Positions 43,047 through 46,000 of a DNA stretch of 64,000 nt are shown piece after piece; within the stretch, counting starts at the first letter, position 1, and each line of letters starts with the position of its first letter. Below the pieces are notes generated by a model, which was not told the origin of the DNA, ran no database searches, and worked only from the letters and a program-made list of their open reading frames with translations. The stretch comes from Hydrolagus affinis (lineage: Eukaryota): contig JAAILG010001117.1 of the NCBI GenBank assembly GCA_012026655.1, positions 1 through 64,000 of the forward strand, written 5' to 3'. The position numbers and the translations under genes were made by a program.

Positions 43047-46000
43047 ATGGCGGCTGTTGGGAGCGCGGGCCTGGAGGCGGTCATTCAAACACAAGCCGAG
43101 CTGGTCCGCAAACTGAAGGCGGACAAGGCCGACCAGGACAAGGTCAGTGGCCGCTCTAACTCCCTGTCTGACACACATACATACAATCACATGCACACAC
43201 ACACACACACTTACTAACACATGCACACACACAGATACACAAGCACACACATACATACAATCACATGTTCACACATACATACACACATGCACATACATGC
43301 ACACACACTTACACATGCACACACATACACACACACATGCTCACACATACATACAATACAAACACTTACTAACACACATGCACACACATGCTCACACATA
43401 CATACACACATACATTCACATGCACACACATGCACACACTAACACACACATAATAATAATCATTAAATTTATAGAGATACACATGCACACACACTTACTA
43501 ACACATGCACACACATATACAGATACACATGCACAAACACACGCACATACATACACACAAACATATAGATCCATACACACACACATACACGAACACACAA
43601 ACACACTCTCCAACAGGTCTCATTTCAACCCACGACTGTTTGTGGGGACGCTGCTGTGTGCAATTGGCTGCTGCATTCGCCCACAAATCTACAGTTGATC
43701 CTCTTTACACCATGTTCTGTGAAGCGTTTTGAGACGTCTGGAAGACATCAGATTAAAATGCAAGGATTATTTATTTTATGAGAGTACTGTACCAGCTAAT
43801 CAATCATCTCGCCCTCTTATTTTTGCTGTGTTGAGTTGGTGGCGATGTGGCTGGATGATGCAACCCTGAATTAAATTGCTTCAAGATCCAGCACATAGGA
43901 TTATTGTGGGAATTTGGGGATCAATCCTTTGCTAGTTTCCCCCACAAAAGGTTCACGTTTTGATTAAATTAAGGCTTTTATTTGTGAAATCAAAAGTTTC
44001 ATTTGTTCCCGGCTCAATCAGCAAGCCTCAACTGTCAAAAAACTGTTTGTTTGTGGGCTGATGTGATTTATATTATTGTGAAGAGAACCCGAATATATAA
44101 AGCTCAATGTTTTGCTGTTCACTGAGATTCATAGTTGATAGGTATTGGTATGAATTGGTATTGGTGATTCAGATATAGAGGTTAATTTCAATTGTTACTC
44201 CTTCCCACCATGTTTTGCTGCCACACTGCACCACTGGCATAGTGGTAATTGCTGACCAGTTTTCTCCTATTCCTTCATGTCCGTCCATCTCGGAAACTCC
44301 TCGCTCACTGCACATGTTTTGCTTTCGACATGATGAACGCTTGACGGTGGAACGGCCTGGACCTGTGGGAATAAAAATTACTGCTCTGTTGGGACAATGG
44401 GTGGAATTTAATGGAATTTCATTGCCAATACTGTTGCTTGGGACACTTGTGATTAAACTGTACTCCATATGCTGTTGACTGTGTGCTTTGGCACATTGAA
44501 CTGATTTAAAATCTCACAATGAACACATTTCGAACTGTCGCTGTGAAATTCTGGCCTGGATTCATGTGCCGACGGGTTGGATCCTACAACACCACTGTGC
44601 GTGCGATGTGCTGTCGGCCTAATGAGCAGGTGGGTAACCTCTTGTGGATTAAAAATGTTGTGTGTTTCAAACTAAAAATTCATTGATATATGTCCACTTC
44701 TGATGGTTATCATTATCTGGGAGATTGAATGGCACTGACTTAGCAGAGCTCTGCCTCGTATTCTCCCAATATTGATTGTTACCGTGAAAAGAGTGTGTGT
44801 ATTTCTATGTTTGGTTATTTTGGTTTTGTGTGGTTACCATACAGGATAAAAGATCTTGTGTAGAGACCCTTGAGCAAAGGATTTCTAAAAATCATCCTTT
44901 CACTGTTTCTGCAACACATGGGCAATTGTGAAGGTCATTTTTTTCTGTGAAGCGCTTCGAAATGTCTAGAAGATGTGAAAAATGCTATATCAAATGCAAG
45001 GATTGTTATTATTATTATTCATTTTTTAATCTCACTTTACAAGCAGCTGTGAAGTGATGGAACAGGAGGGTACCCATTCAGTACATATTGTCTGTTCTGC
45101 CATTTCACTGAATGACGAAAGCTGCTTTCATTCCATCCCTCTGATTTACCCTTACTTCCTGAGTATCTCAGTTTTTGAAACATCCCAATTAATTCAGCAT
45201 CCAGAATTTCTTTTTATGCATTTCTACTTAGTGGAAAGTTGACAAAGTGTCGGGATGTTTTATTGCATCTTTTCCCGAGGTGAAGGTGTGTGTTTTCATT
45301 CCATTTAGATCACAGAGGAAGTGAGGAAGTTGTTAGAACTGAAGGCACAGCTGGGATCAAATGATGGAAAGCCCCAGTTTGTTCTCAAAACTCCAAAGGT
45401 AAAGGAGACAGTCGGGTAGTTAATTTTAAAAAACATTAGTTCAACAACAACTTAAAGGTCTGAATCCCTCTACACAGTCATATCATTTGAAGTTGTTTTT
45501 TCAAAAAAGCACTGTTTAAATGCCACAAAGCTTCTGGATTGTTGTCAAAACCAAAATGACTTTTACAATAACTAATTCCCACAGGGAAGCTCTGTTCTAC
45601 TCATGACTCTGCTCCCACAACACGTATTTGATTTTTAACGCCCACTGAAAATGTCCAACCCGGCTACTCATTTTCAAAAAAACTGCCCCTAGAAAAGTTC
45701 AATAAGACTTATCTTTTTTAAAAAAAATTATGTGATTCAATCGCTCATATCGCTCAAATCCATTTCTTTATCAGAAAGTGAACTAATTCTCTCATGAATT
45801 GCTGACATGATGTGCCTCTGCCTTCTCCCCAAAATTTATATTTAAATAGGGAACCAGGGATTATAACCCGAAGCAAATGGCCATCCGTGAGAGGGCCTTC
45901 AACATCATCACTAACTGCTTCAAACGCCATGGAGCTGAGACCATCGACACGCCAGTGTTTGAGCTGAAGGTAAAGTGCTGGGTGAAGCTTTGCAACATGG

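Follow-up and report, generated by a model that had tools for sequence, protein, structure and literature searches.

A HARS gene of the chimaera Hydrolagus affinis with an AG-free optional exon that probably encodes a mitochondrial presequence

As described in the main text of Waldron et al. (2017, PMC5608375), the hars gene of zebrafish carries a 309-nt exon 2 that was identified by RT-PCR as a cassette; translation from the exon-1 start soon meets a stop, and a second ATG follows. The form started there has 520 amino acids and the cytosolic form 513; in COS7 cells the signal of variant 1 overlaps that of a mitochondrial marker. The single HARS gene is termed ancestral in that paper, whose main text mentions neither shark, cartilaginous fish, branch point, recursive splicing nor reinitiation. 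According to the passages cited from PMC7600831 and PMC4394549, inclusion of exon 2 of human KARS1 likewise brings the exon-1 frame to a stop, and the targeting sequence is added from a start located further downstream. Dual localisation is predicted for Drosophila HisRS (text cited from PMC4826098), and duplication into Hars and Hars2 is described as recurrent (text cited from PMC7414715). The dual-isoform design is already known, being published for zebrafish and annotated in Callorhinchus milii. Among the paper titles listed in literature searches, none concerned the corresponding exon in cartilaginous fishes; the isoform itself stands in RefSeq.

The window, by which we mean the whole 64-kb stretch of Hydrolagus affinis DNA that was analysed, is interrupted by two N gaps (12996-13169 and 54813-54912) and contains a single HARS gene, located by tblastn with Callorhinchus HARS as query. 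No second HARS was detected within the 64 kb by tblastn or by Pfam on the long frames, in agreement with the earlier note, which had reported no adjacent HARS2; the one HARS lies in an NDUFA2-IK-HARS-DND1 block. The coding part of exon 1 (43047..43142, + strand) has 32 codons, with the ATG in the context GTCATGG and a donor at 43143. It is the start of the cytosolic form and aligns with residues 1-34 of a C. milii HARS protein (P0122). The first shared exon, exon 2, occupies 45309..45398 (+), its acceptor ending at 45308. Eleven further shared exons encoding the catalytic and anticodon-binding domains were placed at 45850..53121 (+) by tblastn and GT-AG fitting. The stop codon is at 53119-53121, and exon 1 together with the 12 shared exons amounts to 513 codons. 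The predicted products are a cytosolic form of 513 amino acids and a presequence form of 518.

By its sequence the gene is assigned to the eukaryotic HisRS (HARS). It is identical to P0122, which carries the Pfam domains PF13393, PF03129 and PF00458, in 470 of 515 alignment columns. In a tree of 24 proteins it groups with C. milii (support 100/100), apart from sharks and rays and outside the marsupial HARS1/HARS2 pair, which makes the species a holocephalan. In this tree that pair and the two genes of Heterodontus are separate, lineage-specific duplications. The two genes of Heterodontus francisci are near-identical (P0157/P0013 and P0022) and lie on equally long contigs; the presequence isoform is listed for one of them only, and a young split between cytosol and mitochondrion in a shark is possible. 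Two further observations concern the shared part of the window gene. The intron at 46596-47415 (+) has the donor GTATCCTT and, about 15 nt before its acceptor, TTATCCTTAAC, signals that fit the U12-type (minor spliceosome) consensus. At the acceptor CACAG/GCAGAG (52162-52170, +; here and below a slash marks the splice junction) a second in-frame AG six bases downstream is a candidate alternative site.

Inside intron 1, 37 open codons (44519..44629, +) encode a predicted mitochondrial presequence with 5 Arg, 1 Lys and a single acidic residue, Glu36. The net charge is +5, and the peptide is basic and acid-poor. Our translation agrees with the composition given in the earlier note, except that its "many Thr/Ser" was slightly generous, as the 4 Thr are there with only 1 Ser. 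Its description of the ends also holds on the sequence: the start has the context ACAATG and the 3' end is CAG/GTGGGT, a phase-0 donor in frame with exon 2. Among 7 candidates running from an ATG to a phase-0 donor on both strands of the window, only this peptide had a presequence-like charge, and none of 3000 intron-sized Markov simulations yielded such a frame; the filter (ATG, open frame, phase-0 donor, presequence-like charge) was written knowing the peptide and is to that extent loose.

The earlier note implied that the exon opens at the ATG at 44519. We find instead a longer exon of about 370-390 nt. No AG dinucleotide occurs in the 259 nt upstream of this ATG, and the increase in RNA depth falls in the interval 44204 to 44282, so that the exon must start before the ATG. 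As only two AGs are present between 44204 and 44282, its acceptor must be the AG ending at 44242 or that ending at 44259, unless it is a first exon. The optional exon (44243..44629, +) would thus measure about 387 nt with the former and 370 nt with the latter. Read into it, the exon-1 frame stops after one codon (44242) or after 72 (44259). The sequence upstream of these two acceptors is 58% and 46% pyrimidine, compared to 54-75% for the 12 shared acceptors. AGs at 44180 and 44182 were ruled out as main acceptors by an RNA depth of 1-2 at 44188 and 44204.

Seven upstream ATGs (44277..44504, +) open short frames that are all closed before 44519. As about 4.5 are expected by chance, a GCN4-like regulatory role for them is unsupported. 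The ATG at 44314-44316 reads ACG in all four runs, that is, in the DNA run X1 of a related organism and in three RNA runs (X1 has T>C at 44315, as do 8/8, 11/11 and 7/7 RNA reads), and is a variant or an error of the assembly. The RNA fold of 44243-44629 has a z of 0.54, and 67 of 100 shuffles fold equally well, so no stable hairpin explains the optional exon.

To follow transcription, reads of three raw stranded polyA runs from one sample (X2, X3 and X4) were placed on 43800-49800. Depth in X2/X3/X4 was 1/0/1 at 44090 and 1/1/1 at 44204, rose to 6/8/5 at 44282, 10/11/4 at 44404, 9/20/3 at 44506 and 7/14/5 at 44613, and returned to 1/0/1 at 44867 and 0/0/0 at 45413; at the listed intron places the background was 0-3. 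The reads over the optional exon are from the sense strand, in the same orientation as those over the shared exons. Compared to exon 2 (35/90/32 at 45347), the optional exon stands at 0.20 of the depth when the runs are pooled (range 0.13-0.30). The bin holding the donor (44604-44804) contains the equivalent of 25-50 nt of exon-level depth, with 26 expected. An additional exon is therefore transcribed from the interval that separates exon 1 from exon 2. The 15 RNA joints listed all come from SINE reads; a join of the optional exon to 45309 would fit the drop in depth at 44629 and the phase-0 donor, and the orthologous proteins display this join. The SINE-like repeat is very abundant and drew most RNA reads; a degenerate CA repeat, present where intron 1 begins, and SINE-like copies lie at 43171-43606, 44943-45019 and 48394-48520.

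The presequence is identical at 33 of 38 positions to the N-terminus of the C. milii RefSeq protein XP_007900154.1 (isoform X1, P0123). In this protein and in UniProt V9KKP3 the presequence peptide is joined to the exon-2 peptide. The match alone proves little, since intron DNA is also conserved between the two species. A stretch of the intron downstream of the optional exon (44831-44893, +) is conserved in C. milii, where 17 of 21 residues match as a mis-modelled peptide; its RNA is at background, and a splicing element or slow evolution are both possible. More distant matches are for the same reason more telling. We compared 23 hand-picked non-WHEP N-termini, all database models. Residues in common with the presequence number 13-22 in the 12 rows from sharks and rays (z 6.9-15.8 against shuffles) and 13 in Amia (z 9.8); Polypterus has z 4.0 and the eight teleost rows have z 1.8-6.3. 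The length is exactly 37 residues in 18 of the 23 rows. By sequence comparison, the basic, acid-poor N-terminus is homologous to that of the fish mitochondrial isoform. In the white and basking shark X1 models (P0135 and P0141) an in-frame ATG further upstream lengthens the presequence by 19 residues.

The exon structure also indicates what the presequence would replace. Exon 1 matches positions 1-23 of the Pfam WHEP profile PF00458 (E 8e-6) and exon 2 positions 25-45, from which it follows that the presequence replaces the first half of WHEP, much as the earlier note had proposed; the C. milii X1 form retains profile positions 21-45 only, below the cut-off. The WHEP domain is a helix-turn-helix. 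This fold and the split of the profile would place the boundary between the helices at the exon junction.

Combined, the reading frame, the splice signals, the sense-strand RNA and the homology to annotated isoforms lead us to a reading to which we give a probability of roughly 0.87: an optional exon of about 370-390 nt in the sole HARS gene of the block would exchange the first half of WHEP for a presequence, and the gene would serve both compartments. In this respect the dual-targeting claim of the earlier note is supported by the orthologous isoform X1 N-termini at the same exon-2 join and by the sense RNA. Both junctions, the cassette rather than first-exon nature of the exon, the use of the start codon and import are inferred. 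Skipping, in about 80% of molecules by depth, would join exon 1 to 45309 and give the WHEP-bearing cytosolic enzyme of 513 amino acids. Inclusion, in about 20%, would stop the exon-1 frame within the optional exon, most likely one codon past the acceptor at 44242, and would make of it a 33-codon upstream frame. Ribosomes would then pass six or seven short upstream frames, reach the ATG at 44519 by reinitiation or leaky scanning and produce the 518-amino-acid precursor. Several points speak against this reading: the six or seven upstream ATGs and the strong exon-1 ATG precede 44519; the best hydrophobic moment of the peptide over 11 residues is modest and lower than that of exon 1 (0.45 vs 0.58); both coding differences listed for run X1 change the residue (R5Q and C32Y); and Heterodontus carries two near-identical HARS genes. 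No protein named mitochondrial from a cartilaginous fish was present among the 120 listed of 2112 matches or among the listed family members.

The likeness to zebrafish hars as described in PMC5608375 is close and bears out the earlier note's mention that zebrafish makes both forms from one gene. Each has a single hars gene (here the only one of its block), and intron 1 holds an optional exon several hundred nucleotides long; the exon-1 frame is stopped (here by prediction, and early if the acceptor is 44242) and a second ATG follows; the presequence form is 5-7 residues longer than the WHEP form, and homologous 37-residue N-termini occur in cyprinids. The differences are the holocephalan lineage, the size of the exon (about 370-390 vs 309 nt) and import, which was shown for zebrafish only. 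The "histidine--tRNA ligase isoform X1" of Callorhinchus milii and the elasmobranchs is the direct orthologue with the same junction; these are automatic annotations without function, and one source labels the protein cytoplasmic. Human KARS1 exon 2, in the passages cited above, is alike in design; it belongs to a different synthetase, and the likeness considered here is one of layout. N-termini poor in acidic residues are found at the same junction in an isoform of the nemertean Lineus and in one unnamed protein, with no clear similarity of sequence; the nemertean junction and the use of "ancestral" in the zebrafish paper (PMC5608375, text cited) favour the ancestral design that had been proposed from the sequence.

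The optional exon itself has a property that had not been noted previously. From 44260 to 44624 (+), 365 nt contain no AG, where 19 are expected, and none of 20000 shuffles reaches zero. At 367 it surpasses every other AG gap on the two strands of the window, the next, in the CA repeat, being 231; the maximum in 30 Markov-3 simulations was 176. Within the presequence all 5 Arg codons are CGN, while AGR is used for 10 of the gene's other 27 Arg codons, and synonymous recoding left the segment AG-free in only 53 of 20000 trials. At the 5' end of the zone lies a predicted branch-point heptamer, TGCTGAC (44250..44256, +; branch A at 44255), fitting the YNYURAY consensus as given in the text of PMC1431707. 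It is followed directly by a pyrimidine tract at 44260..44291 (+; 25 of 30 pyrimidines from 44262), which ties for the best tract of intron 1 once the CA repeat is set aside. Only 1 of the 69 AG gaps of at least 80 nt in the window has a branch motif with a 25/30 tract, and a tract of this quality accompanies 13 of the 587 branch-motif matches. Beyond an AG three bases after the branch, the predicted branch point has its first downstream AGs at the exon's own donor, GAG CAG/GTGGGT (44624..44635, +). With the acceptor at 44242, and only then, A44255 would be part of the exon.

The rules for distant branch points, as set out in the text of Gooding et al. (PMC1431707), are that a near AG is bypassed and the spliceosome scans to the first AGs. 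The layout here is that of a distant branch point, namely an extended zone free of AG whose 5' end carries a branch motif and a tract, as in the exons described there; those zones sit in the intron upstream of the acceptor, whereas the HARS zone covers the exon. We favour the view that AGs were purged as competing acceptors over the recursive-splicing view considered below. With the motif and tract at the 5' edge of the exon, any internal AG would likely be taken up as a rival acceptor; selection thus likely keeps the zone free of AG whether a recursive path is used or not. None of the 7 substitutions listed in the related organism's contig (run X1) creates an AG, an outcome with a probability of 0.34 by chance. 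The exon-2 motif had no match in metagenome contigs, and no animal exon-2 peptide was present among the 80 loci listed of 598 alignment matches.

A tentative addition to the two-compartment reading, to which we give about one chance in four, is that distal recursive splicing, driven by this distant branch point, causes the exon to be skipped. U2 would engage A44255 together with the tract at 44260-44291, after which scanning by the spliceosome would cross the 365 nt free of AG; exon 1 would be joined to the CAG ending at 44629, the donor would be rebuilt and the product spliced to 45309. Products made through the GAG at 44626 or the CAG at 44629 would both keep the cytosolic frame. The layout matches verified distant branch points, at which, in the text of PMC1431707, an AG within 12-15 nt of the branch is bypassed and close AGs compete. 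The rarity in the window of a motif with such a tract, the exclusive use of CGN for Arg and the low yield of AG-free recodings point the same way. There are human precedents in the 10 cassette exons with distal exonic recursive sites reported by Hoppe et al. (PMC10156609, main text and four supplements, where HARS and KARS are not named); as here, YAG/GT stands at the far end of the cassette exon. On the other side, the CAG/GT of 44627-44631 is the commonest donor anyway and its YAG-then-GT layout is common by chance. For the published distal sites, according to the text cited, the search considered branch points at a distance of 10-60 nt, whereas HARS would need about 370 nt, and some long AG-free zones are unconnected to splicing (PMC1431707, text cited). 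The 7 substitutions without a new AG are offset by their chance probability. The background RNA after 44629 is expected alike for no use of the path and for a recursive intermediate.

The terminal residue of the presequence also bears on recursion. It is Gln in 65 of 67 distinct N-termini, a set that includes one Ensembl mis-model, and the other two are alignment offsets that also end in Gln; 41 of the 274 proteins were skipped for want of an alignable exon-2 peptide and 42 N-termini were unclassified. This sign is weak, because CAG/GT is the commonest donor and exon 1 ends in Gln as well in 70 of 77 N-termini. Still somewhat more doubtful is the further idea that the exon is self-skipping, with the branch point some 12 nt inside it and the AG-free run beyond, in which competition between the acceptor and the recursive path would set the ratio of cytosolic to mitochondrial enzyme.

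It is unlikely, in our estimate, that the exon is instead an alternative first exon transcribed from a promoter in intron 1, with a start near 44210-44280 and the same protein outcome. AG would then have been purged to keep exon 1 from splicing into it. The weak tracts at both candidate acceptors are in favour, a rough integration of bin depth permits a start slightly before 44243, and the problem of the exon-1 ATG is removed. In five species, moreover, one X1 protein has two RefSeq accessions, which suggests 5' UTR variants. Against it, the zebrafish exon is a cassette by RT-PCR (PMC5608375, text cited), no pile-up of molecule starts is listed at what is a low depth, depth at 44282 has already reached 60-100% of the exon plateau, and the upstream ATGs would persist.

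Far less probable is a role as poison exon, by which HARS mRNA would be directed to nonsense-mediated decay with the 37-codon frame untranslated. Such a role would suit the stop that inclusion sets in the exon-1 frame at a long distance before the next junction, as well as the 6-7 upstream ATGs that lie ahead of 44519. It is made unlikely by the conservation of peptide length, frame, charge and sequence from the chimaera to sharks and Amia, by an isoform share of one fifth of steady-state RNA, by the lack of any other mitochondrial HisRS source seen in the block, and by the zebrafish orthologue, which enters mitochondria (PMC5608375, text cited). Finally, the conserved intron stretch at 44831-44893 weakens the 33/38 match and would suit a chance intronic ORF, which can be dismissed given the confinement of the RNA step to the exon, the elasmobranch isoform homology with z up to 15.8 and the 0/3000 simulations.

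The neighbouring genes were identified by Pfam on 141 long frames of 275 candidates and comprise NDUFA2-like, IK, a UGDH-like gene, a CRAL-TRIO gene and DND1. The UDP-glucose dehydrogenase-like gene (30971-36342, +; PF03721, PF00984 and PF03720) lies between IK and HARS. Human UGDH is not known to lie in this block, and the gene here may be a retained paralogue. The CRAL-TRIO domain gene (38712-39819, -) is head to head with HARS. A peptide starting at 63338, without a Pfam match, is presumably ZMAT2-like, and the order over 43047-63430 is HARS, DND1 and ZMAT2-like, all on the + strand. The human block holds HARS1 and HARS2, with DND1 and HARS1 on one strand and HARS2 and ZMAT2 on the other. 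Compared to this order, the window would fit an inverted HARS-DND1 duplication with later loss of one DND1. The mammalian HARS1/HARS2 pair is of the same enzyme family and of the same syntenic neighbourhood. It consists of two genes that arose by lineage-specific duplication (PMC5608375, text cited), compared to one gene with an optional exon here.

The mechanism published for zebrafish is thereby extended to holocephalans; database isoforms carry it further to sharks, rays, Amia and Polypterus, and a nemertean shows a matching junction. The view of tetrapod HARS/HARS2 pairs as a split of an older two-isoform gene is firmed up by this and comes as no surprise. The AG-free exon matters more than this main finding. 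It offers a short substrate on which to ask if an exon can bring about its own skipping through an internal distant branch point, the absence of AG may be how the exon is usually skipped, and it bears on how cells set the mitochondrial share of a synthetase. If the zone is conserved in other fishes, the mechanism would be ancient and would have been missed in the zebrafish work.
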